The notes beneath the pieces were generated by a model. That model searched no databases. It was given only the letters and a program-made list of their open reading frames with translations, and was not told the DNA's origin. 64,000 nucleotides of DNA from Chthoniobacterales bacterium (GTDB lineage Bacteria; Verrucomicrobiota; Verrucomicrobiia; Chthoniobacterales; UBA6821): positions 3,869-67,868 of the forward strand of contig DATEBV010000367.1 in the NCBI GenBank assembly GCA_035287205.1, in the 5' to 3' direction. This document shows positions 4,431 to 64,000 of the stretch, one piece after another. The translations under genes and the position numbers were made by a program. Each line of letters begins with the position of its first letter. Positions within the stretch are counted from its first letter, which is position 1.

Positions 4431-4608
4431 ATAAGTATTCGGCTAACTCAGGGGATAAAATTTTTCCTAAACATATTGGAATCCTCTCCTGAAGCGATTT
4501 TGAGAGTAAAAAGATTCGTTCTTTCCTTGTCACGAAGTGACCAAAAATCAACTTAAACTTAAACTTATAACTTAAACTAACTATTCGGCCTGTTGGCCGA
4601 ATAGTTAT
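4431..4608 (+). mobile_element. RE-1L copy
   Basis: ataagtattcgg...cttgtcacgaagtgaccaaaaatcaacttaaacttaaac...ctattcggcctgttggccgaatagttat. The last base overlaps the stop of the minus-strand GT-C gene. Confidence 0.8.
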
Positions 4609-8250: not shown

Positions 8251-8383
8251 GTAAATATTCGGTTACACCATCGGTAAAATGTGCCAGCGAATCAACTAAT
8301 CATCAGAGTGATCTATCAAATCTTAATCAGTGTATCAACCTACAGCCTATAGCCTCTATTCGGCCTTTTTGTCGAATAGTTAC
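8251..8383 (+). mobile_element. RE-1S copy (5' end of the membrane-protein gene / intergenic)
   Basis: GTAAATATTCGG...GTCGAATAGTTAC. Homologous to 41270-41420. Directly follows RE-5 solo end 8202-8247. Confidence 0.8.
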
Positions 8384-8416
8384 CTTCACTCTTTACTTGT
8401 TGTTTTTGCCGACAGC

Positions 8417-21913: not shown

Positions 21914-23725
21914 GTGCATCCAATATTTTTTCTTCAAGAATATCTATTAACTTTTTTAGCCATTATTCTCTTTGGATTTTGTGGCTATGGCACCCTTACC
22001 TTCTTTTTAGAGAACCAAGAATTAACTTTTACTCAAATTATTTTAATATCTCCTTTTAATGGAATTATTATGAGTGTGTTAGGGATTATTCTATTATATA
22101 CCTGTGGAATAAGTTTTACTCTAGCAATAGGTATTACTGTTTTATTATTAACCGCAATAAGTATCTATTATCTTACAAAGAACTATAGAAGCATCAAATT
22201 TTTAATAGTGCTTCCATTTTTTATTATTGCTTTCTTAATAAGTCTATTGTGCAACTCTAATGCACTGAAAGAATCTTCTCCTTCCATTCAGATGATTGAT
22301 GGATCTGATGCGATGGGTTATAGCATGAGCGCGGATTGGATTCGAATGAATACCATTAAAAGGCTACCAGGACTCAATGCATCAGATCCCTATGAAGTGT
22401 TACCCTATCAAAATCTTCGTACGGATCAACGGTTAGGAAGTTTTGCTTATTTAGCATTAATTAGTGCGTTCGCTCATCGTTCAGCATTTTTCTCTTATAA
22501 TTTAGCAGTAACAATTGCTATAACCATTTTTATTATGGGGCTTGCTGCAGTAGTCTCTTCTAGATGGATTTGTTTTTATTTAACTTCTTTATTGTTAGGT
22601 TTTTCTCAACTTATTGATTTAGCTAATGCAGGATATTTTGGCAAGATGCTTGGTTATCCAGCTATTTTATTATTGCTGTTACTTGTCCTTAGAAACAATA
22701 CTCCAAGTGCAAAAAATATTTTATACTATTCTCTATTAATAGTGGGTGCGAGTTCACTGTATTCTTATATTAGTACTTTTGTTTTATTTAGTTTTACAAT
22801 ATTTTTATTTTTATTTTATCAATTAATTTTTTGTAAAAAAAGTTTTGGATGGAATGAACAGTATGATGAGTGTAAATGTACTATAATTTACGTATTAGCA
22901 ACTCTAACATTTATAGCATTTGCATGTTCAGGAGGTTTTTTAGTATTGCTTGGAGGTGGTCCTTACTGGCAGCGAGGGCTATTAGAGGATCACCCTTTCC
23001 AGTTGAAGTTTAAAGAGATTCTTTTTTATATTTTAAATATTGATTATATTCCTTCATTAGTTCATTTTCCAGGAGGTAGTGCAAGTTTTATCATCTTTAT
23101 ATCAATAATAATTTTGATAATAGTATGCAGCAGCATTTTTATTAAAAACAGAATAGTATTTATTATAATTATGTTGCCATTAAGTATAATAACAGTATTA
23201 ATAGCAACAGGGCGTTATTGGGGAGCTTACCAAATGGCTTTGCTGTTCTACCTTTGTTCTTGTCTTGCTATAGGATTGTTATTGAATGAATTATTCAAAT
23301 ACAAAACAAAAAAGGCTAGAGTAATAGGAGTATTATTTTTTATTATGTTTGCAATTCCGCATCTGCCTCTTTTTATTGCTGTTACTAATCGATTTGCTTA
23401 TTCCTCACCTGATACTGTTAGATATGCTGAGGCAGAGTTTAAAAAACTTAAAGCTATGATAGGGCATGGAAAAGTTATGATTGATACTACTAGTGTCTAT
23501 GATACACAACCTTTATTGCTTGAATTTGGACGTGATCAGATGAGCCTTTTTTTTACAGCTCGTGCTTGGATTTTAACAGGTTGGGGTCTTTCTTATCCAG
23601 AATATCTTGCCGTCAATCATGGAGAGAATTGTTCTTTTAGGATATTACCTGCAGGAGAAAAATGTGAGTTGCCGTGGGTACCCGTTTATATAGGAAGACA
23701 TTATCAACTGGCTTCAAAGGGATAA
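21914..23725 (+). CDS. Polytopic membrane protein, GT-C-like
   Basis: 603 aa with GTG start and very hydrophobic sequence. First-loop 'GSDAMGYSMSADW'. Lies directly upstream of a GtrB-like GT2. Confidence 0.45.
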   Translation: MHPIFFLQEYLLTFLAIILFGFCGYGTLTFFLENQELTFTQIILISPFNGIIMSVLGIILLYTCGISFTLAIGITVLLLTAISIYYLTKNYRSIKFLIVLPFFIIAFLISLLCNSNALKESSPSIQMIDGSDAMGYSMSADWIRMNTIKRLPGLNASDPYEVLPYQNLRTDQRLGSFAYLALISAFAHRSAFFSYNLAVTIAITIFIMGLAAVVSSRWICFYLTSLLLGFSQLIDLANAGYFGKMLGYPAILLLLLLVLRNNTPSAKNILYYSLLIVGASSLYSYISTFVLFSFTIFLFLFYQLIFCKKSFGWNEQYDECKCTIIYVLATLTFIAFACSGGFLVLLGGGPYWQRGLLEDHPFQLKFKEILFYILNIDYIPSLVHFPGGSASFIIFISIIILIIVCSSIFIKNRIVFIIIMLPLSIITVLIATGRYWGAYQMALLFYLCSCLAIGLLLNELFKYKTKKARVIGVLFFIMFAIPHLPLFIAVTNRFAYSSPDTVRYAEAEFKKLKAMIGHGKVMIDTTSVYDTQPLLLEFGRDQMSLFFTARAWILTGWGLSYPEYLAVNHGENCSFRILPAGEKCELPWVPVYIGRHYQLASKG

Positions 23726-41150: not shown

Positions 41151-41457
41151 GTAAATATTTGACAGCCCTAATCAGAAAATTTTGTTGAAGTTCTTTATTA
41201 AAGTGACCTTGAAAGCAAAAAGTTGGGAGGAAGGAAAAATATCGCTTTGCTTCTCTCCTTGTCACGAAGGTAAATATTCGGTTAACCCATCAGTAAAATG
41301 TGCTAGAGAATCAATTAATTATCAGAGCGATCTATCAAATCTTAATCAGCGTATCGATTAGCCTACAGCCTATAGCCTACAGCCTATAGCCTCTATTCGG
41401 CCAGCAGGCCGAATAGTTACTCACGAAGTGACCAAAAATCAACTTAAACTTAAACTC
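41151..41457 (+). mobile_element. RE-1L copy interrupted by RE-1S (composite)
   Basis: Starts gtaaatatttgac. It is interrupted at 41269/41421 and resumes tgaccaaaaatcaacttaaacttaaac. It lacks its own terminal hairpin. Confidence 0.75.
41270..41420 (+). mobile_element. RE-1S copy nested inside an RE-1L copy, with a perfect 8-bp TSD
   Basis: 151 nt. Flanked by TCACGAAG (41262-41269) and TCACGAAG (41421-41428). It splits the RE-1L motif gtcacgaagtgacc. Confidence 0.9.
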
Positions 41458-41470: not shown

Positions 41471-42916
41471 ATGTTCTCAAACATCCTCTCTATCATTGGC
41501 ATCTCTCTCGAGGTGATTATCCTTTTTAATCTTTTAATTGTTGTTCATGAGTTAGGGCATTTTCTGGCAGCCCGTTCTCGTGGGCTTGTGGTGGAAAAAT
41601 TCGCTATTTGGTTTGGAAAGCCCATTTGGTCGAAGACCATTAATGGAATTGAATATCGGTTAGGATGTATTCCTGCTGGAGGGTTTGTCGCCATCCCTCA
41701 GTTAGCGCCGATGGAAGCACTCGAGGGAGAGAGTAAGCAAAAGTATTCCGATCTGCCGCCTGTTTCCCCACTTGATAAAATTATTGTTGCCGCAGCAGGA
41801 CCGGTTTTTAGTCTTTTGCTGGCTTTAGCATTTGCTTGTGTTGTTTGGGGTGTTGGGCGTCCTGTAAGTGAGGCAGAGAAGACCGCTGTGATAGGTTATG
41901 TTATGCCTGATGGTCCTGCTGCTAAGGCAGGCTTACAGCCAGGAGATAAAATTCTTGCGGTGAATGCACATCCTGTCACACGTATTAATGGGATGGGACG
42001 GATGAGTGATAGCGTGTCTTGGAATGTGGCTACAAGCCAATCACCTTTGATTCCGATTCGCTTTGAGCGCGATGGGGTGGAGCACATTGTTGAAATTGAG
42101 CCCCTTGTGCAGCCTCGCCAAGGATGGGGTAGAAAGAATCTTCGTCAGATTCAGATCTTGCCGGCGCAGACGCCAATGATTTCTAAAATTATCCCTCAAA
42201 GTCCTGCCTCGGCAGCAGGACTTCTTTCTGGCGATCTGGTGGTGATGGCCAATGGAGTAAAATTATTGAGTCCTATTGCCTTGGCAGAAATTCTTAATAA
42301 TACCAAGGGACAGGCGGTAACGTTGGTGATCAGTCGTCGTATGGGAGATGCTTTAAAAACTTTTTCAGTGAATATTTTACCTCTCATTCCTGTAGGGGAG
42401 AAGCAGTCGCGTCTTGGTATTGTCTGGGATCAACGTGGTGTTGTGACGCTCTCTTATCCTAATCCTTGGGATCAAATTGCGGCAAGTGTGAGTACGATGT
42501 GGGAGACCATCTCGGCAGTGATGACACCTCATTCGGAAATTACGGTGCAGCACCTGAGCGGTCCTGTTGGTATTATGAGGATTTATTATATGCTTTTTGA
42601 AAGTCCCATGGGATGGCGTTTAGCTCTTTGGTTCAGTGTGGTGCTTAATGTCAACTTGGCTCTACTGAATCTGCTCCCTTTCCCTGTACTTGATGGGGGG
42701 CACATTCTTCTGGCAATTTGTGAATGGGCAATTCGTAAGCCGATCGAACATCGCGTGGTAGAATGGATTCAGAGTGGCTTTGCTCTTATTCTGATGGGAT
42801 TCATGTTGTATGTAACTTTTTTTGATCTTCTCGATTTGCCGCCCCTTATGAGAGGAAAATCGAATCCCCAAGAAAAATCAGCAGTGATGCAGTTTGCCTC
42901 GCCAGTTGGAAAATGA
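41471..42916 (+). CDS. rseP: RIP (site-2) zinc metalloprotease RseP
   Basis: 'HELGHFLAAR' (HExxH), PDZ-like central regions, and 'NLLPFPVLDGGH' (NxxPxxxLDG). Confidence 0.9.
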   Translation: MFSNILSIIGISLEVIILFNLLIVVHELGHFLAARSRGLVVEKFAIWFGKPIWSKTINGIEYRLGCIPAGGFVAIPQLAPMEALEGESKQKYSDLPPVSPLDKIIVAAAGPVFSLLLALAFACVVWGVGRPVSEAEKTAVIGYVMPDGPAAKAGLQPGDKILAVNAHPVTRINGMGRMSDSVSWNVATSQSPLIPIRFERDGVEHIVEIEPLVQPRQGWGRKNLRQIQILPAQTPMISKIIPQSPASAAGLLSGDLVVMANGVKLLSPIALAEILNNTKGQAVTLVISRRMGDALKTFSVNILPLIPVGEKQSRLGIVWDQRGVVTLSYPNPWDQIAASVSTMWETISAVMTPHSEITVQHLSGPVGIMRIYYMLFESPMGWRLALWFSVVLNVNLALLNLLPFPVLDGGHILLAICEWAIRKPIEHRVVEWIQSGFALILMGFMLYVTFFDLLDLPPLMRGKSNPQEKSAVMQFASPVGK

Positions 42917-44742
42917 CTTACTGTCGCAGCCTTTATCATTATGAGCGGCGCCTTTCTCGCGTTGTAACTGTTGGTGATCTCAAGATGGGTGGAGATGAAC
43001 CAATACGGGTTCAATCGATGTTGACTTCTGACACGATGGATACAGAAGCGTGTGTTCGTGAGACTTTAGGTTTAGTTGCTGTGGGGTGTGAAATAGTTCG
43101 TATCACAGCACCTACAGTGAAGGATGCAGCTAACTTAAAAAATATTCATGAGGCCTTGCGTGCCGTAGGCTGTGAGGTACCGCTGGTGGCTGATATTCAT
43201 TTTAAGCCTGATGCAGCTTTGGAAGCGGCTCAATGGGTGGAGAAGGTTCGCATTAATCCTGGTAATTTTGCGGACTCCAAGAAGTTTCATGTTCGTGAGT
43301 ATAGCGATATTGAATATGAAACGGAGCTGGAAAGGATTCGAGATCGATTCGCTCCGTTAGTACACCTTTGCAAGGAGCGAGGTGTGGCGATGAGAATTGG
43401 AACGAATCACGGTTCGCTTAGTGACCGTATCATGAATCGTTTTGGAGATTCACCGCGAGGAATGGTAGAAAGTGCTTTAGAGTTTGCTCATATTGCTCGG
43501 GATCTTGATTATCATGAATTTGTTTTTTCCATGAAGGCTTCTAATCCGAAGGTAATGATTGAGGCTTATCGATTGTTGATAGCTCGTCTTGAAGCAGAAG
43601 GATCTGATTGGAATTATCCCATTCATCTTGGCGTGACCGAGGCTGGGGATGGAGAAGATGGACGTATTAAAAGTGCTATTGGTATTGGTTCACTTCTTGC
43701 CGATGGTATTGGCGATACGGTTCGGGTTTCACTCACGGAAGATAGCGAGAGAGAGATTCCCGTAGCGCAGGCACTAGTTAGAAGATGGCAGGGAGAAAAT
43801 GGAAGTCAGGATGCAGATTACAGGGAGCAGGTTGCAGGGAATTCATCTCGTGCCGCCGCCGCATGTCCTACCTGGCCTCTTTTTAGTTATGAACGGCGTA
43901 CTTCTGAATCTCTTTGTTTACAAGGAGTGAACCTAGGTGGAGAAGAGCCAATCCGTGTTGTTGTGTTACGTGAGACATATCAAGCAGTTGCTCCTAAATT
44001 GGCATCCATGGGAGAGTATCAACCAGAGCTTATTGAAGAGGATCTTCCCATTAAAGAAATTGATCCTTCTTCTGATGCTGAGGTAGCCGCCATGAATGCC
44101 GAAGAAAGCCCTACTCTTGTTACAGTAAGGGATGGTACGGCAATGTCGCCGATTGCAGCCTTTCGCATGTTAGCAGCACGTCTTGCAGCAAGGCATCCTA
44201 TTTTACTCAAAGATACATTAGACTTCTTTCGAAACCCTACTGGTGCCGCGAATTGTGACGTCGCGTCGGTGTTGGAGCAGAATTCTACTAATAATCTGCT
44301 TGCTTCAGCGACTACTATTGGTTCGTTGCTTTGTGATGGTATTGGAGATGCCATTATGATTCGTAGAGAGAAGGCGCCAGGCGCTTCGTTGCGTCTTGCT
44401 TATAATATTCTTCAAGCGGCAGGCACACGGATTTTTAAAACCGATTATGTAGCATGTCCTTCGTGTGGGAGAACGCTTTTTAATCTTCAGAACACAACCG
44501 CTCGTATTAAGGCTGCTACAGGACATCTCAAAGGAGTTCGTCTTGCAGTAATGGGGTGTATTGTTAATGGTCCCGGAGAAATGGCCGATGCCGATTTCGG
44601 TTATGTCGGAGGGGCCCCAGGTAAAATCAATCTCTATGTCGGAAAGAAGCCTATAAAATTTAATATTCCGGAAGCAGAGGCTGTAGAACAACTTGTTCAA
44701 CTCATCCGTGAGCATGGTAAATGGGTTGACGCAGTAGTTTGA
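42913..44742 (+). CDS. ispG: 4-hydroxy-3-methylbut-2-en-1-yl diphosphate synthase, long form with inserted domain
   Basis: 'IRVQSM', 'VADIHF', 'RINPGN' and the Fe-S cysteines 'ACPSCGRT' and 'GCIVNGPGE'. 609 aa. A half RE-3 copy lies in frame at 44226-44280 within the insert domain. Confidence 0.9.
   Translation: MTYCRSLYHYERRLSRVVTVGDLKMGGDEPIRVQSMLTSDTMDTEACVRETLGLVAVGCEIVRITAPTVKDAANLKNIHEALRAVGCEVPLVADIHFKPDAALEAAQWVEKVRINPGNFADSKKFHVREYSDIEYETELERIRDRFAPLVHLCKERGVAMRIGTNHGSLSDRIMNRFGDSPRGMVESALEFAHIARDLDYHEFVFSMKASNPKVMIEAYRLLIARLEAEGSDWNYPIHLGVTEAGDGEDGRIKSAIGIGSLLADGIGDTVRVSLTEDSEREIPVAQALVRRWQGENGSQDADYREQVAGNSSRAAAACPTWPLFSYERRTSESLCLQGVNLGGEEPIRVVVLRETYQAVAPKLASMGEYQPELIEEDLPIKEIDPSSDAEVAAMNAEESPTLVTVRDGTAMSPIAAFRMLAARLAARHPILLKDTLDFFRNPTGAANCDVASVLEQNSTNNLLASATTIGSLLCDGIGDAIMIRREKAPGASLRLAYNILQAAGTRIFKTDYVACPSCGRTLFNLQNTTARIKAATGHLKGVRLAVMGCIVNGPGEMADADFGYVGGAPGKINLYVGKKPIKFNIPEAEAVEQLVQLIREHGKWVDAVV
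44226..44280 (-). repeat. RE-3 half copy, in frame in ispG
   Basis: ctttcgaaaccctactggtgccgcgaattgtgacgtcgcgtcggtgttggagcag aligns with the left half of 52456-52587. Encodes FRNPTGAANCDVASVLEQ. Confidence 0.65.
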
Positions 44743-45621: not shown

Positions 45622-45794
45622 GTAACGAGTAACGAGTAAAGGGTAACGAGTTTATTTTCTTGCCTGCGGCAATTGATTTAAAAAATTGCTCACTATAACA
45701 AATTAATTTTCGATAAAATGGTATTTTTGAGAATTTATATTTTTCTGAACTTACCCATTCTATTTTTTTGATAAAAATGGCCAAAGTCCAGTTA

Positions 45795-51257: not shown

Positions 51258-51280
51258 TTTTTGCTTGATGCTTGCTAGCA

Positions 51281-54200
51281 ATGGACCCTTCAGATTTTAT
51301 TTTTTTAGATTGGAATCGTCCATGGCTTCCTCAACTTGCACAGTACCTGCTGACAACATGGTCCTGTAATCAACAATCCTCAGCACTTGATTCTGCAAGC
51401 GCATATACTGACCTCTCTGACACTGTTGTAATTTTGCCTGGGAGTAGGGCAGGGCGGCGACTTTTAGAGCTTCTTGCGCTTCAAGCTACAGAAGCGGCGC
51501 AAATTTTAATTCCTCCTCGTATTGTTACTTTGAGGAAGGCCGTTTCTTTGTTTTTAGAATTGAGTGAAGAATGCTTTCCTGAGGCAGGGCTCTTTACAAG
51601 TCGATTAGCTTGGCGTGAAGCTATGGCACAACTTCCCGCAAGTGAGCATTCTTTCATTCATGCTGCTCCTATAGAATCAACACAGAATCAACCGCTCTAT
51701 CGTATTGCTGAAGAACTAGCCCAAAAATTGGGTGGTGTAGGGCTTGATTTCAACGATGTTGCGAGACGTCTTGGCAGTCTCTGTCCCGAGGTCGCTGACT
51801 TTGAAGAGCCCCGTTGGAACGCTCTAGCTCATTTACAACAACTCTATCGTCAACAACTGACCCAATGGGGATATAGCGATGCTACCGACGCTCTTCGAAA
51901 ACGGCTTGCAGAAGGGGTTGCGAAGAAAGATGGCCGGATACTCGCCTGTTTTGTTGCCGACTATTCTCCTCTTTTTATTCCTTTTTTTGAAAAGGTACAA
52001 CCAGCCATCGCTGTTGTGGCTCCTTCTTCGCATGCAGCAGGATTTGGAGCCTATGGAAAATTAATCACTTCTTACTGGTTAGAGCATCCTGTTTCTTTGG
52101 ACTCAGCAACTATTATTCCTTGTGAAAGGAGTGAGGATCAGGCAGAAGAGATCGCTCATCTTGTTTCTTCCTTAGAGGTTTTTCTTCCTTCTTCTTTTTC
52201 GCTATCCGATAGTATTTCAATAGCGACCCCTGATGTTTCAGCTGTTCCAATGATTCGTGAACAGCTGGCTTTAGCTGACATCAAAGCTCGTTGGGCAGGA
52301 GGAAAGTCTTTTAAAGGAAGTCGTCTTCATCAACTCTTGCATGCGGTTGCCACAATGATGGATTCCTTTCCCAAGCTCTCTCTCGAAGCCTTTCGTTTGC
52401 TCTTGCGTCATCCGGATATCAATGTGCATCTCTCAGATCAAGAAAAAGTAGACTTCTTTCGAAACTCTACTTCTGCTGTGAATTGCGGCGTCGCGCCGGT
52501 GCTCGAAGTATCGAGTAGCTCCTGTACACTCAACTTCTCCGCGCCGTCGACTCCTTGCACTTCATCAGCAGAAGCGAGTTTGGGAAGAAGTCTATTGATT
52601 CGTCAGCTCGACCAATGGGAACAAGATCATCTGTCGCAGTTTTTAGAAAAAGATCATCTGCGTCAGTTTCCCAAATTTTTTTCACTTCTTTCTGCTATTA
52701 CAAAAATTGAAGAGATCATAGGCTTTTCGCCAAGATCTCAACGACTTGATTATTTAGTGAATGAATTAAGATTGTTTTTTCTACGAACTATGGGCGATCG
52801 TGAGGTCCGTGTTACGGTTCCTGAAGAACATTATCTTGTAGGGTGCCTTGAAAAGTTGAACATACTTCTTGAAGAAATTTCTTGTTCTTCATCAGCCTCA
52901 GCGACCATGAATATAGGTTCTGAGACAGGTTCTAAAAGAAAATCTGATAGTGGTCCCTTTTCGCTTCGAATGGCTGATTTTATAAGGCTTCTTATTGAAA
53001 TCATGAGTTCAGAAGAGCTTCCGGAGCGTGAAGAGCCCGAAGCTATTGAACTTTTGGGATGGCTTGAGGTCGCTTCTGATGATGCGCCAGTAATTATTAT
53101 TTCCTCTTGTCATGAGGGAGCGCTTCCTTCCTCTCAACGAGGAGATCCTTGGCTGCCTGAAGGGATTAGAGGTGCCTTGGGACTTCCTGATAACAAGCGA
53201 TTACTTGCACGTGATCATTATCTCCTTCACACCATCATGGCTGCTCGCACAGAAGCAGGCGTTGTTAAGATCTTTGCGCCACGTCATAATGGTCGTGGAG
53301 AACCAGTACGCCCAAGTCGTCTTTTAATGCTTGGTTGTTCTGAAGAAGAATTACCTGAAAGAGTTCTTTCACTAACGCAACGATTACAAGGAGGTTCTTA
53401 TCGATCACAATCTCAACAGGATTTTAGTAAGAACCTATCTTCACAGTCTACTGAAGCTGCGATGGGCTTCGTCACTCCGGTGCTCGAGTCCTCAGGTATG
53501 CCCTATACATTCCGGGCTCTGCGCTCCGAGGTTCCTTGCCCTTCATCAGCCTCAGCGACTTTGAAAACAGGTTCTAAGCAAGAATCAAGCTTTCGAGCTC
53601 TTCCTATAACAGAAGCAACCATCGAACGTCTGAATGTTACCTCTTTACGCACCTACTTGCGATCGCCAAGACTTTTTTATCTGCAGCATATTTTAAAGCT
53701 TCAAGAAATTGAATTGAATGCTGTTGAAATGGATGCATCACAATTTGGAACCCTGATTCATGCGGTGCTTGGAGCTTTTGGAGCTGAGGAGAAGATAACT
53801 AGTGTCCTCGATGCTAAAGAAACCTCTTCGTGGTTTAGAAAAAAACTTTTTGAAATTGCTCAGTATCAATTCGGCAACGAGCCACGACAATCTATCGTAT
53901 CACAAATTGAAGAAGTGATGCCTACTTTAGATGGTTTTGCCAAAGCGCAACAACTTCATCGTAGTAAAGGATGGAAAATCATTCATGCTGAAGCTATAGA
54001 CCAGGGGGGAGGCTCTCGCTTAGAAAAAATGATATCTCTTCCGAAAGGTCAATCCGTTATTTTACAGGGAAGGATAGATCGAGTTGATTGGCATCCAGAA
54101 ACAAGACGATGGTTAATTATTGATTATAAAACTTCTAACCGACAAGATTGGGAAAGGCAGACTCCTGATAGAGAGCATTTTCAAGAACAAGGAGGAGTGA

Positions 54201-54505
54201 TGCTATGGCATGACCTTCAACTTCCATTGTACTTAAAACTTGTTGATCAAATTCCAGCAGTGATGGGTTCAGGATTACCTACTCCAACTTTGGACAATAC
54301 AGACCTCTGCTACTTTCAGCTTCCTATCCACCCTGAAAGAGCAGGGTTAAGTTCTTATTTTAGCAACAGCATGATTACAGCAGCGTGGGAAGAGGCCTTC
54401 CGTGTGATAGAAGAAATTCTTGCTGGTAACTTCGAAGAAATCGGTGATCTTAATTCTGATCAAATGCCTACCTTAGCCGCTCTTTGTGGGATTTCTGGGT
54501 TGTAG
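51281..54505 (+). CDS. PD-(D/E)XK nuclease family protein, AddB/RexB-like
   Basis: C-terminal 'GRIDRVDWHPETRRWLIIDYKTS' followed by 'QLPLY' fits the RecB-family nuclease motif of AddB-type proteins. About 1,075 aa, with no Walker A seen. Carries RE-3 insertions at 52456-52587, 52887-52933 and 53430-53575. No addA partner in the window. Confidence 0.55.
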   Translation: MDPSDFIFLDWNRPWLPQLAQYLLTTWSCNQQSSALDSASAYTDLSDTVVILPGSRAGRRLLELLALQATEAAQILIPPRIVTLRKAVSLFLELSEECFPEAGLFTSRLAWREAMAQLPASEHSFIHAAPIESTQNQPLYRIAEELAQKLGGVGLDFNDVARRLGSLCPEVADFEEPRWNALAHLQQLYRQQLTQWGYSDATDALRKRLAEGVAKKDGRILACFVADYSPLFIPFFEKVQPAIAVVAPSSHAAGFGAYGKLITSYWLEHPVSLDSATIIPCERSEDQAEEIAHLVSSLEVFLPSSFSLSDSISIATPDVSAVPMIREQLALADIKARWAGGKSFKGSRLHQLLHAVATMMDSFPKLSLEAFRLLLRHPDINVHLSDQEKVDFFRNSTSAVNCGVAPVLEVSSSSCTLNFSAPSTPCTSSAEASLGRSLLIRQLDQWEQDHLSQFLEKDHLRQFPKFFSLLSAITKIEEIIGFSPRSQRLDYLVNELRLFFLRTMGDREVRVTVPEEHYLVGCLEKLNILLEEISCSSSASATMNIGSETGSKRKSDSGPFSLRMADFIRLLIEIMSSEELPEREEPEAIELLGWLEVASDDAPVIIISSCHEGALPSSQRGDPWLPEGIRGALGLPDNKRLLARDHYLLHTIMAARTEAGVVKIFAPRHNGRGEPVRPSRLLMLGCSEEELPERVLSLTQRLQGGSYRSQSQQDFSKNLSSQSTEAAMGFVTPVLESSGMPYTFRALRSEVPCPSSASATLKTGSKQESSFRALPITEATIERLNVTSLRTYLRSPRLFYLQHILKLQEIELNAVEMDASQFGTLIHAVLGAFGAEEKITSVLDAKETSSWFRKKLFEIAQYQFGNEPRQSIVSQIEEVMPTLDGFAKAQQLHRSKGWKIIHAEAIDQGGGSRLEKMISLPKGQSVILQGRIDRVDWHPETRRWLIIDYKTSNRQDWERQTPDREHFQEQGGVMLWHDLQLPLYLKLVDQIPAVMGSGLPTPTLDNTDLCYFQLPIHPERAGLSSYFSNSMITAAWEEAFRVIEEILAGNFEEIGDLNSDQMPTLAALCGISGL
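52456..52587 (-). repeat. RE-3 copy (reverse orientation), in frame (44 codons) in the AddB-like gene
   Basis: Close reverse complement of 7316-7447, roughly 85-90% identical by eye. Encodes FRNSTSAVNCGVAPVLEVSSSSCTLNFSAPSTPCTSSAEASLG. Confidence 0.85.
52887..52933 (-). repeat. RE-3 end fragment, in frame in the AddB-like gene
   Basis: cttcatcagcctcagcgaccatgaatataggttctgagacaggttct aligns with the right end of 53430-53575. Confidence 0.55.
53430..53575 (-). repeat. RE-3 long variant (reverse orientation), in frame in the AddB-like gene
   Basis: Termini agaacctatcttcacagtc / gactttgaaaacaggttct. Reverse complement of copy 56102-56247. Encodes ...STEAAMGFVTPVLESSGMPYTFRALRSEVPCPSSASATLKTGS. 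Confidence 0.8.
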
Positions 54506-54515: not shown

Positions 54516-54750
54516 GGAAGAAAATAGCCACAAAAGAACACAAAGAAACACAAAAAGAAACTTGGCGATGAACTAGATTAATTAGCTAGCCTAAGCTGTT
54601 TTGCTGCTATTAACGCTCTATATTGAAGCAGGATTTCAATTCCTGGCCTCATTGATTTTCATAATATTGAACATTCTTTATCTTTAATTTTTATAAAAAT
54701 TCTTTTTTTTATTTTTGCTTCTTTGTGTTCTTTTGTGGCTATTTTCTTCC
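54516..54750. repeat. RE-5 full-length copy (AddB-like to GH spacer)
   Basis: GGAAGAAAATAGCCACAAAAGAACACAAAGAAACACAAAAAG ... TTCTTTTGTGGCTATTTTCTTCC. Confidence 0.85.
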
Positions 54751-57266
54751 GGCAATTACTTCATTTCAGTTTGAATTTATATCAACGCTCATTACTCGTC
54801 TGGCCATTCCTTGTGGTTGTTTTCTGCTATTTGCTAATTCCCTCACAAGTACTAGCTCTCAACGGTAGTAAATATTCGGTAAACTCATCTGTAGAATGTG
54901 CTCCAACGAATCAGCAGAGTTCTTCTAATTGTGCCTGCAGCAACAGCTCTCCACTTCCATCTCCTGTCGCAGCGACGACATCTCCCACCTCTCACCTACC
55001 ACCTACCACCTCTATTAGGCCTGTTGGTCGAATAGTGACAGGCATTGTCACTATTGATCTCGATCATCCGAAGGCAATTTTGGATGCTTCTCAAACTCTT
55101 GGTGCAGGAATTGATGGGCATAAAGAGGGAGAGGGGGAAACAATTTTTTCATTAGCCAATATTCGCCGTATGCGTTCAGCTGGTTTAAAACCACTTGCTT
55201 ACCGCCTTCGGACTGAATTAGGGGTGGAAGCATGGCATTGGAATCCTCAAGGAACTTGGAGTGATCCTTCTCACCAGCAAGGGTATTGGCTCTCATCGAT
55301 TCATTCTAAAAAACCACTTCTTGAAAGTTATGGTTATCGACTACCTCGTCGCGGAGATACTCTTGACGAAGCTAATAACGATGGCTATTCACGACTTGAT
55401 GATGGTAACTCTAAGACTTTTTGGAAAAGCAATCCTTACCTTACTTCTCATTATACAGGAGAACCTGATAGGAAACATCCCCAGTGGGTGGTGCTCGATT
55501 TTGGAAAGCCTGTTTTTATTAATGCGGTCCGTCTTCATTGGAGAGAACCCTACGCAAAAAAATTTCGTATTCAATTTGCCAATGAAGGAGCTGTTTACTT
55601 TGGGCATCATCGTCCTTGGCATGATTTTCCTCAGGGAAAAAGAGAGCAAGGTCATGGAGGAGAAGAATTGCTTTCTTTAGGAGAGGTCAAGAAATTCGGG
55701 AAAAGAATACCTATTCGTTTTCTTCGCGTTCTGATGACAGAGAGTTCAGCAACAGCTCCTCCTTCGTGTCACGACCCACGCGACATGATGGGATATGCTA
55801 TCCAAGAAATTGAAGCAGGAGAAATAACTCGCGACGGAGTTTTTCATGATCATGTCATTCATCGTCCTGATAACCAGCAGACGCTCGTTTATGTTTCATC
55901 AACGGATCCATGGCATCGTGCCTCAGATAGGGATGAAAAAACCGAGCAACCAGGTTTTGATTTAATTGTTTCTTCTCGTCTTGCAGAAAAAAATGCCATC
56001 CTTTGGTCACTTCCAGTATTGTATGATACTCCGGAAAATAGTGCTGCTGCAGTACGATTCTTGCAACAACGCGGATATCTCTCTCAAGGAGTGTCAAAAT
56101 TAGAACCTGTTTTAAAAGTCGCTGAGGCTGATGAAGGGCGAGGAGTCGGCGGCGCGCAGAAGTTGAGTGTACAGCAGCTACTCGATGCTTCGAGCACCGG
56201 CGCGACGAAGCCATTCGCAGCTGCAGTAGACTTTGAAAACAGGTTCTTAGAACTTGGTGAAGAACCCGATGGGCAGCGCATAGATCCTAATGACTTTGGA
56301 GCTCTCTACTGTCAAACAGCACGACTTATTCGTAAGATAGATCCTTCAATTTCTTTAGGAGGTCCTAGTTTTGTCACCATTGATTGCCAACCAAACGATA
56401 CCACCTACCGCTTTGATCATCGTTCTTGGCTTCAGCGATTTTTCAAACAACTTCGAAAAAAAAATCAAAAGAAAGACTTTCAGTTTCTTACTTTTGAGTG
56501 GTATCCCTTCGACGATATTTGCCTTGATCCAGCGTCCTTACTTACTCAAGAACCGCTCCAACTTCAGCAAGCCGTTAAGCGAATTCGTCGTGGAGGAGTT
56601 CCTCCCTCCATGCCACTCATGATTACCGAGTATGGGTATTCTGTCTTTGAAGGACAACCTGAGGTGGAGCTTGCAGCAGCACTACTCAATACGGATATTA
56701 GTGCTCAATTTCTCTTATTAGGAGGAAAGACTTCTTATCTTTATGGGTATGAACCAAATTCTTTAGCCTGCCTTTATGGGAATTCTTGGGGAAACCTGAT
56801 GATGTTTCTTCAGAATAAAAGAGGAGGAATCAAAGCCTCTCTTCCTACTTATTATGCTGCACGTCTCTTAACTCAAGAGTGGATGGCTCCTTTAGCAGGA
56901 ACTCATCAAATCTATCCAACAGTAACAAATCTCAAAGACAAGAAGGGAAGATCTTTGGTAACAGCCTATACCCTTCAGCGTCCAGATCATCAGTGGTCAC
57001 TTCTAATCGTCAATAAAAGCCCTGATCAAGCTTGTTGTATTCAATGTCATTTTCTACATGCTGATCGAAAAGTTCCTAGTCCATGGAAAAGTCCTAGGGA
57101 TCTTTATTCCTATTCTCCAGTTCAATACCAATGGCATGTTGATGGACCGCATGGGCATCCTTCTCGCAATCGAGAGCCAGCTCACTCTTCGCTCAAAGAA
57201 GAAGATCCAATAATAATACTTCCATGGTCTATTACGGTCATTCTATTCGGGCAACAGGCCGAATAG
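54723..57266 (+). CDS. Secreted discoidin (F5/8 type C)-domain protein with C-terminal TIM-barrel glycoside-hydrolase-like region
   Basis: 'FWKSNPY...PQWVVLDFGKPVFINAVRLHW' is discoidin-like. 'LELGEEPDG', 'FEWYPF' and 'MITEYGYS' resemble GH clan-A acid/base and nucleophile strands. TTG start lies inside RE-5 copy 54516-54750. In-frame RE-1V (54868-55039) and RE-3 (56102-56247). The TAG stop lies inside an RE-1L terminal hairpin. Confidence 0.55.
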   Translation: MCSFVAIFFRQLLHFSLNLYQRSLLVWPFLVVVFCYLLIPSQVLALNGSKYSVNSSVECAPTNQQSSSNCACSNSSPLPSPVAATTSPTSHLPPTTSIRPVGRIVTGIVTIDLDHPKAILDASQTLGAGIDGHKEGEGETIFSLANIRRMRSAGLKPLAYRLRTELGVEAWHWNPQGTWSDPSHQQGYWLSSIHSKKPLLESYGYRLPRRGDTLDEANNDGYSRLDDGNSKTFWKSNPYLTSHYTGEPDRKHPQWVVLDFGKPVFINAVRLHWREPYAKKFRIQFANEGAVYFGHHRPWHDFPQGKREQGHGGEELLSLGEVKKFGKRIPIRFLRVLMTESSATAPPSCHDPRDMMGYAIQEIEAGEITRDGVFHDHVIHRPDNQQTLVYVSSTDPWHRASDRDEKTEQPGFDLIVSSRLAEKNAILWSLPVLYDTPENSAAAVRFLQQRGYLSQGVSKLEPVLKVAEADEGRGVGGAQKLSVQQLLDASSTGATKPFAAAVDFENRFLELGEEPDGQRIDPNDFGALYCQTARLIRKIDPSISLGGPSFVTIDCQPNDTTYRFDHRSWLQRFFKQLRKKNQKKDFQFLTFEWYPFDDICLDPASLLTQEPLQLQQAVKRIRRGGVPPSMPLMITEYGYSVFEGQPEVELAAALLNTDISAQFLLLGGKTSYLYGYEPNSLACLYGNSWGNLMMFLQNKRGGIKASLPTYYAARLLTQEWMAPLAGTHQIYPTVTNLKDKKGRSLVTAYTLQRPDHQWSLLIVNKSPDQACCIQCHFLHADRKVPSPWKSPRDLYSYSPVQYQWHVDGPHGHPSRNREPAHSSLKEEDPIIILPWSITVILFGQQAE
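54868..55039 (+). mobile_element. RE-1V (172-nt variant), in frame inside the discoidin/GH gene
   Basis: GTAAATATTCGG...CTATTAGGCCTGTTGGTCGAATAGTGAC. Encodes KYSVNSSVECAPTNQQSSSNCACSNSSPLPSPVAATTSPTSHLPPTTSIRPVGRIV. Confidence 0.85.
56102..56247 (+). repeat. RE-3 long variant, in frame in the discoidin/GH gene
   Basis: Termini AGAACCTGTTTTAAAAGTC / GACTTTGAAAACAGGTTCT. Encodes EPVLKVAEADEGRGVGGAQKLSVQQLLDASSTGATKPFAAAVDFENRF. Confidence 0.85.
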
Positions 57267-59560: not shown

Positions 59561-59797
59561 ATACAGAGAGAAGTGATTAATGGGAAAATCCATTTTCAAA
59601 ATCAGCTTGCTTTCGAACCCTATATACAGCAGCACAAGAATATTGCAAACAGGTAAACATCTTGATAGGAAATTACACCATCAATTCAATATTTTGGATA
59701 TCATCAAACCGACGTTCTACAAAAATTTAAATTCGCTGACATCTTGCCCTTTGAATACGGGCTGCAAGTATTGCCAATTTTATCAATGTTACATCTT

Positions 59798-62700
59798 ATG
59801 AAAAAACTCTTCTTTACCTCTCTCTTTGCTGTTTTAATCCGTACAGGCTTCCTTGTAGCACAAGATAATTATCAGGTGACAGGAAGCAGGGAACAGGGAA
59901 CAAATTCCAATCAAACCACAGAACTGGTTCAGAATAACAGTAGGATAGCATTACCATTAAGAAACGATACAATTCCTATTTCCAATCTTCTCTCTTTTAC
60001 CTCCCTTTTGGACGTTACGCCCAAATTGATGATGAACCCTTCTCTTGAAGAGGAAACAAAGACTTTAGCAAAAGCTTTAGGAGTTTTGGGAAAAGGTGCA
60101 GTCGATGCTAAAGGAGTAATGGTAGGAGGTGAAAGTGGGGGAATCGGAGCCGTGGGAGCTATGAGAAGCAATGTTGATAGTACTATTTCGTCCAGTAATG
60201 TATTAAGACTTCGTGGTGGAGGACCTAAAAAAACTCAGCAATTTCAACCTAAGGGAGCTCTTAAATCAACGGGAGAGAGTAGTGAGGAAGGGGAGAGTGG
60301 ATCTGATCCTGATGCTTCAGCAGATGAAGATGTTTGTGACATGATTTATACTAATATAAAAGATTATATTAGGACAACGGGTATGGCTGATGTTGCAATT
60401 GATTTAGATAAAGAGAAACAACAAGCTACAAAAGAATTAAAAAAACAACAGGCACTGGCATTAAGTCGTACTCATGATGAGACGCGTTCTGTAGGAACAG
60501 TAGATAGTGAATGGATTCAAGATGCATTGTATAAGACAGCTCAAATGAAACTAGGAGCTACCTTAAAAAAAGAGCAAGCCGATTTACACAGTCTACACAG
60601 TCCCCATAGCCCATCTAGCAAAGATCAAGAGTTAGCGGCTAAAAAGAAAATGACCCTTTTACTCCATGGAAACTCACAATTAGCAGTAGAAAAGGCACAG
60701 CGGGCAAAAGAAGCTGCAGAAAACAATTTAAAAAAGGAAGATAAAGGCCATCAAAAGATACTTGTAAATCAGTATGCAACACCATTAGATCAAGAAAATT
60801 CCTCGCTGAATATGATTTGCCAGGAAGCTCTTGTAACGTATGCAACTGCTGATCATGAGTTTAAAAAAGCCAAGAGAGACATTGAAGAAGCACAGCTTGC
60901 TACGGTAAATGCAGAGTTGGCATTGCAAGAGGCACAACATATTGAAAGTGATCTCTCTTCACTTAATAAAGCAGTCTCTGCTTTAGAGCTTGCACGCGAA
61001 GAGGAGGAAAACCTAGAGCAGAAAACAGATCCTATAGCGAATGAAGCTTCAGCAAGAAATAGTTGGTGTGAGGCCTTGAAAAAGGCCTTTGAAACGGCAG
61101 TAGCAGCTAACGATTTAAGAGCAAAAATTCCATCCTTATCATTATTCTCTTCATCGCTATCATCTCAAGCAACAAAGTGGAATAAAATCCTACAAGAGGC
61201 TCAAGCTACAGAACAAGCTTGGAAAGAGGTGGTTGACGCATGTCGTAGTGCTCTTGATAAAAAACCTATTCGAAAGTCTAAAATTATTTGGGACAAAGAT
61301 CTGGAAGAAGCCGTTAATCAACAGATGCTATGGGAGACGAGGATTATTTGGTTCAAGATAGGACAAACTGTCGAAGAGGCTAAAGCATCTTCTGGATTAC
61401 AGAATTCAGAAGAGCTTCTTCAACAAGCCGAGGAAATGAGTTCTATTTATGATGATCTGTTAGGAACACTTCAAAGGAAACAGAACGAGACTCCAGCAAG
61501 ATTACAAACGTGGTGGAATCATGACCTTCAGCAAATAGAGGCTCAACGAGGAACCCATGAAAAGGAGGTAGCTAAATTAAGGGCAGCAGAAGCTCAGAGA
61601 AAAATAGAAGTGGAAAAAGCAAGATTGGCTGCAGAGCTCAATGAAGCAATTAGAAATTCCGATACGGTTTGGAATCATGCTCTTGAACTTAGTCACCAAG
61701 TGAATACTTCTAAAGTCTCAGCTGATAGAACCAGAACAGAAAATGCTTATCAAGAAGTGATGCGTCTTGCTGATAATGCTTCTGCTGCTTGGGTGCAGGC
61801 AGCAGAAGGAAAAAGAAATGTTCTATCTAAAACAACAGATACAAATCAAAGAGCTACGCTGAATAATAAAATTCAAGAAGCAACGAGTAAAAGAACAGAA
61901 TATACCCAACTTGCTAAAACAGCTCTTGCCAATGCTCAAGAAATAGCTAAGAAAATGGCTGAAGCACGCGAAGCGGAGCGCATTGCAAAAGAAAAAGCGG
62001 ATGCCCTAGCGGCTAAAGAATTAAGTGAAGCAATGAACATTGCACGTATTGCTTGGAATCATGCTGTTGACCTTAGTAGTCAAACTGATACTGCTAAATC
62101 CTCAGCTGATAGAATTCAAACAGAGAATGCCTATCAAGAAGTGAAAGGTCTTGCAGAGAATGCTATTATAATTTGGACAGAAGCAGAAATGGCACAGAAA
62201 AATGTTTTATCTAAAACAACAGACGTGAATCAAAAAGCTGCTTTAAATAGCAAAATTCAAGAAGCAATAAATAAGAAAAAGGAATATGCTCAACTTACTG
62301 CAATAGTAGTCAAAGAAATTCAAAAGAAAGAAGAAGCAGAAAAAGCAAGATTGGCTGCGGAGCTTAATGAAACAATTCGAAATGCTGATGTGGCTTGGAA
62401 TGATGCTCTTGAGCTTAGTCGCCAAGTGGATGCTGCTAAAGCTTCAGCAGATAGAATCCAAACAGAGAATGCCTATCAAGAAGTGAAGCGTCTTGCAGAG
62501 AACGCTGCTACTGCTTGGGTGAAAGCAGAGGAGGGAAAAAGAAATGTTCTATCTAAAACAGCAGGTGCGAATCAAAGAGCTACAGTGAGTAGTAAAATTC
62601 AAGAAGCAACGAATAAAAGAACAGAATACACTCAACTTTCCAAGCAAGCTCTTGCTAATGCTCAAGAAATAGCTAGGAAAGTGGCTGCTGCACGCGAAGT

Positions 62701-64000
62701 AGAGCGCATTGCAAAAGAAAAAGAGGCTGCCCAAGTTGCTAAAGAATTAAGCGAAGCAATTAACATTGCATGTGCTGTTTGGAACCATGCTATTGATCTT
62801 AGTAGTCGAACTGATGCTGCTAAAGCCTCAGCAGATAGAACCCAAGCAGAGAATGCTTATCAAGAAGTGAGGCGTCTTGCAGAGGATGTTGCAGCTGCTT
62901 GGATGAAAGCAGAAGAGACATTGAGGAATGTTTTATCTAAAACAACAGATATGAATCAAAAAGCTGTTTTAAATAATAAAATTCAAGAAACAGCAAATAA
63001 AAAGATCGAGTATACTCGATTTGCGACAACAGCTCTTGCCAATGCTCAAGAAGCAACAAGGAAAGCGGCTGAAATGAAAGCTCAGGCAAAAGCCGAAAAG
63101 AAACGCCTTCAAGAAGAAGCTAAAGCAGCTCAAGAGAGAGAAATTGCCGCTCAGTTAGCAAGGGAGAGAGCGGAATGGTTAGAAAAACAAAAGGGAGTTA
63201 AGACTGAAGTAGAGAGAAGAATAGGAGAAATAAGGGAGCGCATAGACTTAATAGAAAGAAAAAAAACAGAAGCTACAGAAACAAATCGCCTAGCATGGGA
63301 GAAGGTTGAAAGGGTCAATAATAAATGGATGGTAAGAGATAGTACAAGAACAACAGCTAAAGAAGCAGCGGAGAGTGCAACAGCTGATTTAGAACGAATC
63401 AAAGAAGAACAGAAAATAGTTGAAGCTGATTTGGCAAGATGTCAAGAGGTGATTAGAAGATGGGATAACTCGCCAAAAGAAAATGTAGCAGAAGTAATAA
63501 GAAAATTTCAAGAAGCACAATCAAAAGTCCAAACGACAATAGGAGATAATTCATCTTGTTGGCAAGAAGTTGCAATGTCTTTAGAAAAGAGTGCTGACTA
63601 TTGGAAGAGAGCATTTGAATTCCAAACAAATCAAACAGCTCTAGCCGTAGATTATAGCATGATTGCAGTTGAATCAGAACAAGCCGCAGAATATAGCAAA
63701 AGAGCAGCTGAGGTGTATGCGACTTTAGATGAAGATACGGAAGATAACAGAAAAGGAAATCGATGGAAACATGCAGGTCAATCTGCACAGTATAGTGCCG
63801 ATTGTAGGATGAAAGGAATTGAAGCAGGGCGTCTAGGAAAACAGGCGAATGTTCAAGAATATGCAACAGCAGCAGGAAAATTGCAACACGCTTCAATATT
63901 ATGCGTTCAAGCTGTACTAGATGGTCATATGTTGTGGAAGGAAGGTCCTATGCTCCAGTGGAGGCGAGGTCGTTTTCTCCAAGCAGAAGGAATAAGTGAG
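59798..64000 (+). CDS. Very large secreted coiled-coil repeat protein (3' end outside the window; missing from the ORF track)
   Basis: Manual translation from ATG 59798 (MKKLFFTSLFAVLIRTGFLVAQDN...) is stop-free to base 64000, at least 1,400 codons. K/E/A/Q-rich and heptad-like, with four 116/126-aa tandem units. All listed minus-strand ORFs here are shadows. Confidence 0.75.
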   Translation, partial: MKKLFFTSLFAVLIRTGFLVAQDNYQVTGSREQGTNSNQTTELVQNNSRIALPLRNDTIPISNLLSFTSLLDVTPKLMMNPSLEEETKTLAKALGVLGKGAVDAKGVMVGGESGGIGAVGAMRSNVDSTISSSNVLRLRGGGPKKTQQFQPKGALKSTGESSEEGESGSDPDASADEDVCDMIYTNIKDYIRTTGMADVAIDLDKEKQQATKELKKQQALALSRTHDETRSVGTVDSEWIQDALYKTAQMKLGATLKKEQADLHSLHSPHSPSSKDQELAAKKKMTLLLHGNSQLAVEKAQRAKEAAENNLKKEDKGHQKILVNQYATPLDQENSSLNMICQEALVTYATADHEFKKAKRDIEEAQLATVNAELALQEAQHIESDLSSLNKAVSALELAREEEENLEQKTDPIANEASARNSWCEALKKAFETAVAANDLRAKIPSLSLFSSSLSSQATKWNKILQEAQATEQAWKEVVDACRSALDKKPIRKSKIIWDKDLEEAVNQQMLWETRIIWFKIGQTVEEAKASSGLQNSEELLQQAEEMSSIYDDLLGTLQRKQNETPARLQTWWNHDLQQIEAQRGTHEKEVAKLRAAEAQRKIEVEKARLAAELNEAIRNSDTVWNHALELSHQVNTSKVSADRTRTENAYQEVMRLADNASAAWVQAAEGKRNVLSKTTDTNQRATLNNKIQEATSKRTEYTQLAKTALANAQEIAKKMAEAREAERIAKEKADALAAKELSEAMNIARIAWNHAVDLSSQTDTAKSSADRIQTENAYQEVKGLAENAIIIWTEAEMAQKNVLSKTTDVNQKAALNSKIQEAINKKKEYAQLTAIVVKEIQKKEEAEKARLAAELNETIRNADVAWNDALELSRQVDAAKASADRIQTENAYQEVKRLAENAATAWVKAEEGKRNVLSKTAGANQRATVSSKIQEATNKRTEYTQLSKQALANAQEIARKVAAAREVERIAKEKEAAQVAKELSEAINIACAVWNHAIDLSSRTDAAKASADRTQAENAYQEVRRLAEDVAAAWMKAEETLRNVLSKTTDMNQKAVLNNKIQETANKKIEYTRFATTALANAQEATRKAAEMKAQAKAEKKRLQEEAKAAQEREIAAQLARERAEWLEKQKGVKTEVERRIGEIRERIDLIERKKTEATETNRLAWEKVERVNNKWMVRDSTRTTAKEAAESATADLERIKEEQKIVEADLARCQEVIRRWDNSPKENVAEVIRKFQEAQSKVQTTIGDNSSCWQEVAMSLEKSADYWKRAFEFQTNQTALAVDYSMIAVESEQAAEYSKRAAEVYATLDEDTEDNRKGNRWKHAGQSAQYSADCRMKGIEAGRLGKQANVQEYATAAGKLQHASILCVQAVLDGHMLWKEGPMLQWRRGRFLQAEGISE
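61613..63064 (+). repeat. In-frame tandem repeats inside the giant coiled-coil gene (4 units of 378/348/378/348 nt; 726-nt super-period)
   Basis: Units start at 61613, 61991, 62339 and 62717. Recurrent core: WNHA..LS...D..K.SADR.QTENAYQEV..LAENA..AW...E....NVLSKTTD.NQ.A.LN.KIQEA.NK..EY. Confidence 0.85.

Follow-up and report, generated by a model that had tools for sequence, protein, structure and literature searches.

A Sec-exported helical-repeat giant with a ubiquitin-tail motif in its leader: a possible member of an effector-like repertoire in an aquifer verrucomicrobium

What is the product of a reading frame that stays open over 1,401 codons and runs off the end of the DNA under study? 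This question is raised by the last 4,203 bases of a stretch of 64,000 nucleotides (the window; all positions refer to it unless another contig is named) from a Chthoniobacterales bacterium, GenBank assembly GCA_035287205.1, contig DATEBV010000367.1, positions 3,869 to 67,868 of the forward strand. An earlier note, made from the letters alone, read the frame as a secreted coiled-coil giant. We propose that its product, P0001, leaves the cytoplasm by the Sec pathway and belongs to an effector-like repertoire directed at a eukaryotic host, and give this reading a probability of roughly 0.45. One argument for it is that the same leader and the same C-terminal repeats as in P0001 also carry a ubiquitin-specific protease (USP), because of which the family probably acts where ubiquitin exists. 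That the family is directed at a eukaryote at all we hold to be an even bet.

The gene and its family

The frame starts with MKKLFFTSLFAVLIRTGFLVAQDN at ATG 59798, and its translation has no stop up to the window end at 64000, as the earlier note had stated. Its absence from the list of open reading frames (ORFs) was also rightly explained, because ORFs running off the window go unlisted and the list has nothing but short antisense ORFs in this region. The gene is indeed cut off by the window. Extension of the contig placed the stop 807 nt past the window, and the complete protein has 1,670 aa, of which codons 1-1,401 lie at 59798-64000 on the + strand. Its NCBI entry is 'hypothetical protein VJK54_11650' of a Chthoniobacterales metagenome-assembled genome (MAG) from the Rifle aquifer. 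The closest in-frame stop on the 5' side is at 59666, and an additional in-frame ATG is found at 59786, four codons 5' of ATG 59798.

Such a frame could be open through an assembly error or a biased composition and contain no functional gene. Consistent with this, neither a promoter nor a Shine-Dalgarno sequence was recognised upstream of P0001, where promoter-like sites were no commoner than in shuffles; the terminator scan at the end of the gene, like the promoter scan at its start, gave no more matches than shuffles. Against it, the probability of 1,401 open codons by chance is about e^-91, assuming about 6% stops per random codon at the G+C content of this DNA (about 40%). The 4,203 bases match exactly in two independent ENA assemblies (L001 and L002), and therefore no frameshift or assembly fault is present in P0001. 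The G+C content at codon positions 1, 2 and 3 is 0.54, 0.41 and 0.25, and 72% of the bases at position 1 are purines; since these biases are a coding signature, the frame was judged to be coding. Furthermore, the paralogous proteins are conserved through synonymous changes and a confident structure model was obtained. The reading as a non-gene is thus effectively refuted, and P0001 is a real gene.

P0001 belongs to a large family. A profile of its N-terminal 404 aa, which comprise the leader and the adjoining helical region, was searched exhaustively by HMMER against 1.84 billion cluster representatives (clusters at 50% identity), and 75 clusters matched at E 0.001 or better, most of them in the leader only. 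Twenty of the 75 were traced, and all for which an origin is recorded stem from one organism and sample. They bear the tags VJK54_*, which denotes a third-party-annotated assembly, A3F67_* (GCA_001830205.1, 'Verrucomicrobia bacterium') and run SRR3990167, and at least 22 distinct VJK54 genes appeared in the tracing. The sample label 'ANAN16' presumably refers to Anantharaman et al. 2016, a study of the Rifle aquifer. When 5.8 billion proteins were searched by word index with whole P0001, three other proteins were returned, each of them from the same MAG; the leader alignment gave 12 matches, and a profile of the 64-aa repeat described below gave none. A leader scan of 185,579 species-representative genomes found no relatives, and a pattern scan of 241 million metagenome records found 14 family loci, all in one IMG set (Ga0155638), in which the family genes often stand in tandem or at contig ends. 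Thus, in all data searched, this very large family is confined to one deep-branching uncultivated verrucomicrobium. The depth of the branch is indicated by IspG/GcpE encoded in the window (42913-44742), which is 61-68% identical to the best of the 185,579 species-representative genomes, its matches to Chthoniobacterales and to Akkermansiaceae / Luteolibacter scoring alike; the lineage is therefore deep-branching and has no sequenced close relative. Even without a link to a host, about 75 divergent clusters in one genome behind a common motif-rich leader are an unusual lineage-specific expansion.

The family plan consists of a signal peptide, a variable low-complexity stretch and, in most members, the motif [KH]LMM[ND]P. 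A subset carries the motif SSSNQ-VLRLRGGG-PKK..GGLKSTGDxSDEE..DPDLESED (38 sequences, redundant cluster members counted). Behind the leader, a unit of about 121 aa is found in about eight family sequences and a unit of 64 aa in at least 25, in up to 14 copies each. The leader is constant among the members, and the helical modules that follow it are shuffled.

The leader, its ubiquitin tail and a paralogue with a USP domain

The signal peptide proposed in the earlier note is well supported. It covers aa 1-21 (59798..59860, +; MKKLFFTSLFAVLIRTGFLVA then Q) and has n, h and c regions, namely MKK, a hydrophobic stretch at aa 3-21 and an ending LVA before Q. It is predicted to be of the signal peptidase I type, having no lipobox Cys, and is the sole hydrophobic 19-aa window of P0001. 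An AlphaFold2 model of the N-terminus places a helix at aa 3-18. Among 103 Met-starting family sequences, 79 have a signal peptide ending in (L/F)(L/F)A before Q or another residue, with Q at +1 in 61 of the 79; a typical family signal peptide reads MKKIIPSxLLAxSASSSLLLA and then Q. This Q resembles the 'Q-rule' for signal-peptide cleavage, which was reported as Bacteroidetes-specific (PMC5837995), though the organism here is a verrucomicrobium. These sequence features indicate that P0001 is very probably exported by a Sec-type signal, and it is strongly supported that the protein is soluble.

The next region, aa 22-175 (59861..60322, +), is rich in Gly, Ser, Thr and Asn and forms a leader or pro-region of about 150 aa with conserved short motifs. 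It is predicted to be disordered: pLDDT was below 50 over aa 1-177 (AlphaFold2, alignment of 8 sequences), and apart from the signal-peptide helix, regular structure in the model was limited to short helices at aa 70-93. Four blocks of the leader are invariant in the four closest paralogues: L-V-PKLMMNP; ALG..GK; VLRLRGGG.KK.Q; and G.LK..G..S.E followed by an acidic run. PKLMMNP itself (aa 75-81, 60020..60040, +) is present in most of 77 family sequences, [KH]LMM[ND]P being the commonest leader motif of the family. The Gly-rich stretch and the acidic patch of the earlier note both exist and differ in conservation. The former (GVMVGGESGGIGAVGAM, aa 106-122, 60113..60163, +) is an insertion peculiar to P0001, where the alignment of the other paralogues has a gap. 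The latter, aa 160-179, is conserved among the paralogues and lies in a segment starting with GALKSTGESSEE (aa 153-179, 60254..60334, +), for which the family consensus is GGLKSTGDxSDEE..DPDLESED. VLRLRGGG, which that note had not mentioned, is located between them at aa 135-142 (60200..60223, +), within the disordered region, and is proposed here as a cleavage site of deubiquitinase (DUB) type; the sequence spanning the proposed cleavage point is SSSNVLRLRGGGPKKTQ.

The C-terminal tail of ubiquitin is LVLRLRGG, and VLRLRGG at aa 135-141 of P0001 is identical to ubiquitin residues 70-76. VLRLRGGG is invariant across the four close paralogues, and LRLRGGG or a near variant was found in 38 sequences with very different flanks. 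Across nine paralogous loci, five Leu, four Arg and four Gly codons are used in the VLRLRGGG block. Since the codons differ synonymously, selection has acted on the protein, and recent gene conversion, which we considered as the cause of the conservation, is ruled out. The literature searched gave no example of an exported bacterial protein that carries LRLRGG or a ubiquitin tail internally.

A second link to ubiquitin was found within the same family. A Pfam scan of the 77 family sequences gave one meaningful match, a USP/UCH domain in P0059 and its near-identical copy P0082 (VJK54_09095). The domain matches PF00443 at E 2e-17, with 64 bits against a cut-off of 23.9, over profile positions 3-254 of 254. 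Its Cys box (LNNGGNDCFINSSLQ), a QQDAAAFL motif and the His box GHYICY...WWKFNDLVV align with human USP36, USP15 and USP4. The same protein carries the family signal peptide, KLMMNP and four or five of the 64-aa repeats. The gene (L003 3279-7505; GCA_001830205.1, contig MIDR01000098.1) is located on an ordinary bacterial contig near genes for EF-P and an SIS/CBS protein, directly 3' of another family member. P0001 itself has no USP/UCH domain by Pfam. Burkholderia TssM is the one bacterial deubiquitinase of the USP class to have been described and reaches the host by type II secretion (PMC10719079). Judged from sequence, the paralogue would be a second, independent bacterial case with a fuller USP domain: TssM is 'fingerless', with a shortened USP, whereas P0059/P0082 matches the whole Pfam UCH profile, and the two lineages are unrelated. 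They are alike in having a USP domain, and the type II route of TssM also starts with Sec.

A different account of the leader is that its motifs, including LRLRGGG, serve the bacterium's own machinery, either for a second export step across the outer membrane or as a site for a bacterial pro-protein protease. The likeness to ubiquitin would then be coincidental or convergent, whether or not the proteins are effectors. Several observations agree with this: [KH]LMM[ND]P is more widespread than LRLRGGG and has no link to ubiquitin, the leader is conserved as one block together with the signal peptide, members with a degenerate LRLRGG or none keep the remaining leader, and a secretin gene is found near one family locus, about 10 kb downstream of the USP paralogue gene (L003). 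We nevertheless consider it unlikely. A chance match of the conserved 7-residue block has a probability of about 1e-7, as calculated from residue frequencies and before allowing for the post hoc choice of the motif, and a ubiquitin-specific protease domain occurs within the same family. Furthermore, we know of no bacterial export signal of the LRLRGGG form.

We therefore return to the effector-like repertoire, for which the following course can be proposed. P0001 is built from a signal peptide of 21 aa, a leader of about 150 aa that is predicted to be disordered, about nine helices, four units of about 121 aa, a short coiled-coil-like module and six 64-aa hairpins. The leader would be a common module for export and maturation, and the helical bodies would be binding or scaffolding payloads. 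After Sec export, the proteins would cross the outer membrane, possibly by type II secretion as for TssM, and, as effectors with a binding or scaffolding role, would work on or inside a eukaryotic host. The exposed LRLRGGG might be cut between its second and third glycines by a USP-type protease, which may be a host deubiquitinase or the USP paralogue of the family, and the cut would free the helical rod. Such cleavage we regard as doubtful. The stricter form of the proposal, a repertoire of pro-effectors whose ubiquitin-tail leader allows maturation only where a ubiquitin-specific protease is present, in the cytosol of a eukaryotic host or beside the bacterium's own co-exported USP, is somewhat less likely still.

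Several points weigh against this proposal. Secretion past the periplasm, the host and the cleavage are all steps that we infer. The organism was obtained from aquifer groundwater, and the window holds functions of a free-living cell (citrate synthase, IspG and an O-antigen cluster). USP enzymes normally depend on the folded body of ubiquitin. Cleavage by a USP is weakened because the sequence before LRLRGG is disordered without a beta-grasp fold: at aa 22-175 of P0001 no strands were predicted, and there was no Pfam ubiquitin match. More than half of the family lacks the LRLRGG motif and five clusters have altered glycines (EGG, GVG, DGG, DEG and GGP), so the motif is not essential to every member. 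The USP paralogue is one of 77, and the Pfam scan of the family gave no other eukaryote-like domain. Finally, since the lineage has no sequenced close relative, the orphan appearance of the family is partly explained.

Known systems offer partial parallels. As in ubiquitin and proteins matured by DUBs, VLRLRGG in P0001 is followed by a small residue and lies in an exposed segment; unlike in ubiquitin fusions, no ubiquitin fold precedes the tail, which is located in a bacterial Sec-exported leader, and the cleavage is a proposal. SDE2 is cut by USP5 after a ubiquitin-like Gly-Gly (PMC13572447), coronavirus PLpro cuts at LXGG sites (PMC10126577), and viral proteases cut both LXGG polyprotein sites and ubiquitin (PMC10126577, PMC5695851). 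By analogy, the family also resembles the RxLR-dEER effectors of oomycetes, the PEXEL proteins of Plasmodium and the SVM effectors of phytoplasmas, in which the variable body follows a signal peptide, a short conserved motif (located within about 150 aa) and an acidic stretch, with one large family per lineage. The bodies behind the leader in those repertoires are often made of helical repeats. The motifs differ, however, and the organism that encodes P0001 is a diderm bacterium. On reading, the leader of P0001 contains no R-x-L-R; LRLRGG holds R-L-R only, although the acidic stretch is present. A double-glycine leader was also rejected: the substrates of C39 peptidases have theirs at the N-terminus, with a length of 15-30 aa and no Sec signal, whereas the GG of P0001 is at aa 140-141 behind a Sec-type signal, which is the wrong position. 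N-myristoylation of the Gly exposed by cleavage was set aside as well, as the PROSITE myristoylation pattern excludes Pro after Gly and the next residue here is usually Pro; only the GSKK variants would pass.

If the proposal is right, an uncultivated aquifer verrucomicrobium would be marked as a likely associate of a eukaryote (a protist) by its large exported family and complete USP. With its ubiquitin-tail motif, the Sec-exported leader would offer bacterial effectors a new kind of signal for maturation or recognition. In the stricter pro-effector form, it would be the counterpart in a bacterium of the processing of viral polyproteins at LXGG sites, and the activation of effectors would be confined to the host by a new means, in a lineage of verrucomicrobia for which no association with a host is known.

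The helical body and the question of a surface fibre

The body of P0001 is rich in Ala, Glu and Lys, as the earlier note had seen (A 14.9%, E 10.7%, K 8.9%), and is built of repeats. The first helical region, aa 176-603 (60323..61606, +), has nine helices of 26-77 residues (AlphaFold2 model 2), with a pLDDT mostly of 60-89 from aa 281 and lower before, and is collinear with the paralogues P0002 and P0003 by BLAST. It is followed at aa 604-1095 by four units of about 121 aa, which were recognised as repeats in DNA and protein and in the model: unit 1, aa 604-731 (61607..61990, +); unit 2, aa 732-845 (61991..62332, +); unit 3, aa 846-973 (62333..62716, +); and unit 4, aa 974-1095 (62717..63082, +). 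The units are 114-128 aa long and 54-73% identical as protein, with units 1 and 3 sharing 73%. At the DNA level the copies are 67-83% identical at a spacing of 384/342/384 nt, which shows an ABAB duplication. Next comes a Lys/Glu/Ala-rich linker with a 'ERRIGEIRERIDLIERK' module, aa 1096-1254 (63083..63559, +), in which a 76-residue helix is modelled at aa 1099-1174; the module has one copy in P0003 and two in P0002. The window ends in the 64-aa helical hairpin repeats (63560..64000, +), identified by a local HMM, alignment and model. The first two units span aa 1255-1311 and 1323-1371, and four more, six in total, extend past the window to aa 1642. Their consensus is SW..AG..L...A.Y..KAIEAEEAGK..LA..YREAA...Q, and they are modelled as pairs of helices of about 29 residues with 3-residue turns between them. 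The model of aa 596-1670 has a mean pLDDT of 82.4 and a pTM of 0.52 (AlphaFold2, alignment of 4 sequences). Neither repeat type had been described in the earlier note. The protein repeats escaped Tandem Repeats Finder, their period being longer than 500 nt, and a separate repeat search found them.

Does this body form a long coiled coil, as had been supposed? Strong a/d heptad windows cover 5.2% of residues 191-1670, compared with 4.5% on average and at most 9.4% in 100 shuffles, by a crude score that excludes Ala from the core residues. The longest coherent heptad runs are about 40 residues, and aa 1096-1254 is the sole segment with a clear hydrophobic periodicity of 3.5 residues. AlphaFold2 splits the chain into helices of about 25-90 residues joined by turns of 2-3 residues. 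Short helices and tight turns suggest intramolecular bundles or hairpins and not a fibre-forming parallel coiled coil. Thus, the giant is almost all helix, as claimed, while the heptad-like sequence of more than 1,000 residues shows no excess over shuffles, and a long heptad coiled coil is not borne out.

In the model, a unit of about 121 aa has three helices. The first, of about 49 residues, is separated by a 2-residue turn from the second, of about 31, and a 3-residue turn leads to the third, which has about 92 residues and runs on into the next unit. This predicted pattern resembles that of a spectrin-type rod. The unit of about 114-128 aa with two conserved Trp, in whose model helices and tight turns alternate until a long helix enters the next unit, recalls spectrin, alpha-actinin, plectin and nesprin (PF00435), whose repeat has three helices in about 106-120 aa, the last one extending into the following repeat. 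In contrast to spectrin, P0001 gave no Pfam match to PF00435, and a profile of the unit matched no PDB chain in sequence. Spectrin-repeat structures were among the Foldseek matches without being significant (E 0.66 or worse, TM 0.25-0.32), and the likeness is confined to the predicted topology. For the C-terminal part of P0001, Foldseek ranked designed helical repeat proteins highest. Weak matches of a 64-aa unit profile among PDB sequences, to consensus TPR proteins (E 1.8e-7) and to Sec17/alpha-SNAP (E 1e-4), span only 22-27 residues. TPR membership was rejected because the unit has one helix of about 29 residues per 32 residues and not a 34-aa helix-turn-helix, and Pfam gave no TPR or SNAP match. 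Remote homology, one of the checks proposed at the outset, yielded nothing useful: in a Foldseek search of the PDB no structure reached E 0.001. P0001 was assigned no family and no catalytic domain by Pfam (threshold E 1 with aa 1-1401, E 0.001 with the full-length protein) or NCBIfam, in line with the earlier statement that no catalytic motif can be recognised, and among its paralogues the two databases matched nothing but the USP domain. The family thus adds two new helical repeat types, of 121 and 64 aa, without sequence relatives in Pfam, NCBIfam or the PDB.

One could suppose that such a protein never leaves the envelope and is a spectrin-like scaffold in the periplasm. It has a Sec signal only, with no recognised secretion-system signal, and is predicted to be an all-helical rod; bacterial proteins with spectrin-like repeats, such as EzrA, exist. 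We regard this as improbable, since about 75 divergent clusters, a disordered motif-rich leader and a USP paralogue would all be unexplained.

The strongest rival to the effector-like repertoire is a family of variable surface or coat proteins, that is, cell-surface rods whose paralogues provide antigenic or phase variation against phages or grazers, and whose leader is conserved only for export and attachment. The family has much that would be expected of it: dozens of paralogues with a constant leader and shuffled bodies, tandem arrays, contigs that often break in family genes, and one member split over two reading frames. Heptanucleotide repeats, whose slippage could shift the frame, occur in the leader-coding DNA of several members, and the prediction of an elongated spectrin-like rod suits a surface fibre. 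However, no anchor was found in P0001: there is no second hydrophobic segment, no lipobox Cys and no anchor domain in Pfam or NCBIfam. The heptamer repeat in the leader-coding DNA of P0001 (ACAGGGA, codons 28-35, 59879..59902, +) is short and imperfect, with 3.4 copies and 82% matches by the tandem-repeat scan, and phase variation of P0001 through it was not argued for on these grounds. Moreover, surface variation leaves the USP deubiquitinase paralogue and the conserved ubiquitin tail unexplained. We therefore judge it rather unlikely, at about the level of the pro-effector form given above. P0001 also shares a signal peptide, large size and Ala/Glu/Lys-rich helical sequence with streptococcal M protein and the stalks of trimeric autotransporters, and differs from them in having neither a sustained heptad register nor an anchor and in helices predicted to fold back. 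Of the three possibilities named in the earlier note, a secreted effector fits best, and the fibril and the adhesin are disfavoured by the missing anchor.

Near the C-terminus of the paralogue P0003 (VJK54_03255), two adjacent Gly/Ala-rich hydrophobic segments were observed at aa 1135-1178. The pair is reminiscent of the bilobed hydrophobic domain in the inclusion-membrane proteins of chlamydiae; P0001 is without similar segments.

Heptamer repeats and neighbouring genes

Heptanucleotide tandem repeats of many units, in about 3-6 copies, are the commonest class of tandem repeat in the DNA of this organism (74 period-7 rows in about 250 kb). The enrichment is modest, as period 9 has 66 rows. 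Within the window they are located at 1112-1142, 41360-41392, 45622-45651 and 54985-55011 as well as in the leader-coding DNA of P0001, and elsewhere at L001 16368-16412, L008 4674-4704 and L014 3552-3582. Slippage of such a repeat would shift the frame because 7 is not a multiple of 3. In the leader-coding DNA of one family gene, ACTACGA x4.4 translates to TTNYELPTTNC, and a perfect AGTTCGT x6.4 lies downstream of the P0001 gene. The family gene split over two frames is at L003 249-800 and 716-3310, with the leader in one frame and eleven 64-aa repeats in the other; a pseudogene, a phase-off variant and an assembly error are the possible explanations. Another fragment of a leader is present at L003 9376-9753.

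Upstream of P0001, the window encodes a 1,077-aa protein with a C-terminal PD-(D/E)XK nuclease domain, AddB-like (51272-54505, +), an 847-aa protein with an F5/8 type C (discoidin) domain (54723-57266, +), and a 274-aa protein with a weak match to FGE-sulfatase (formylglycine-generating enzyme), transcribed away from P0001 (58671-59495, -). None of these three neighbours has the family leader. Four large ORFs of 581-994 aa without a Pfam family (4608-6353 on the - strand, 8330-10348, 18918-21902 and 21914-23725) are located in or beside the polysaccharide/O-antigen cluster, which encodes dTDP-rhamnose and GDP-mannose enzymes, glycosyltransferases and a Wzm/Wzt-type ABC exporter. On the other side, just 3' of P0001, an ORF of 217 aa (L001 15657-16310, -) carries a segment like that of a lipoprotein (FFLTGC) and has no recorded Pfam family, and its 5' part encodes the heptamer-repeat translation NYELRTTNYKL. 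About 2 kb past the P0001 stop, at the end of the 77-kb scaffold, an ORF at L001 16873-17690 resembles by eye a group II intron reverse transcriptase; a repeated mobile element at this place would explain the contig break.

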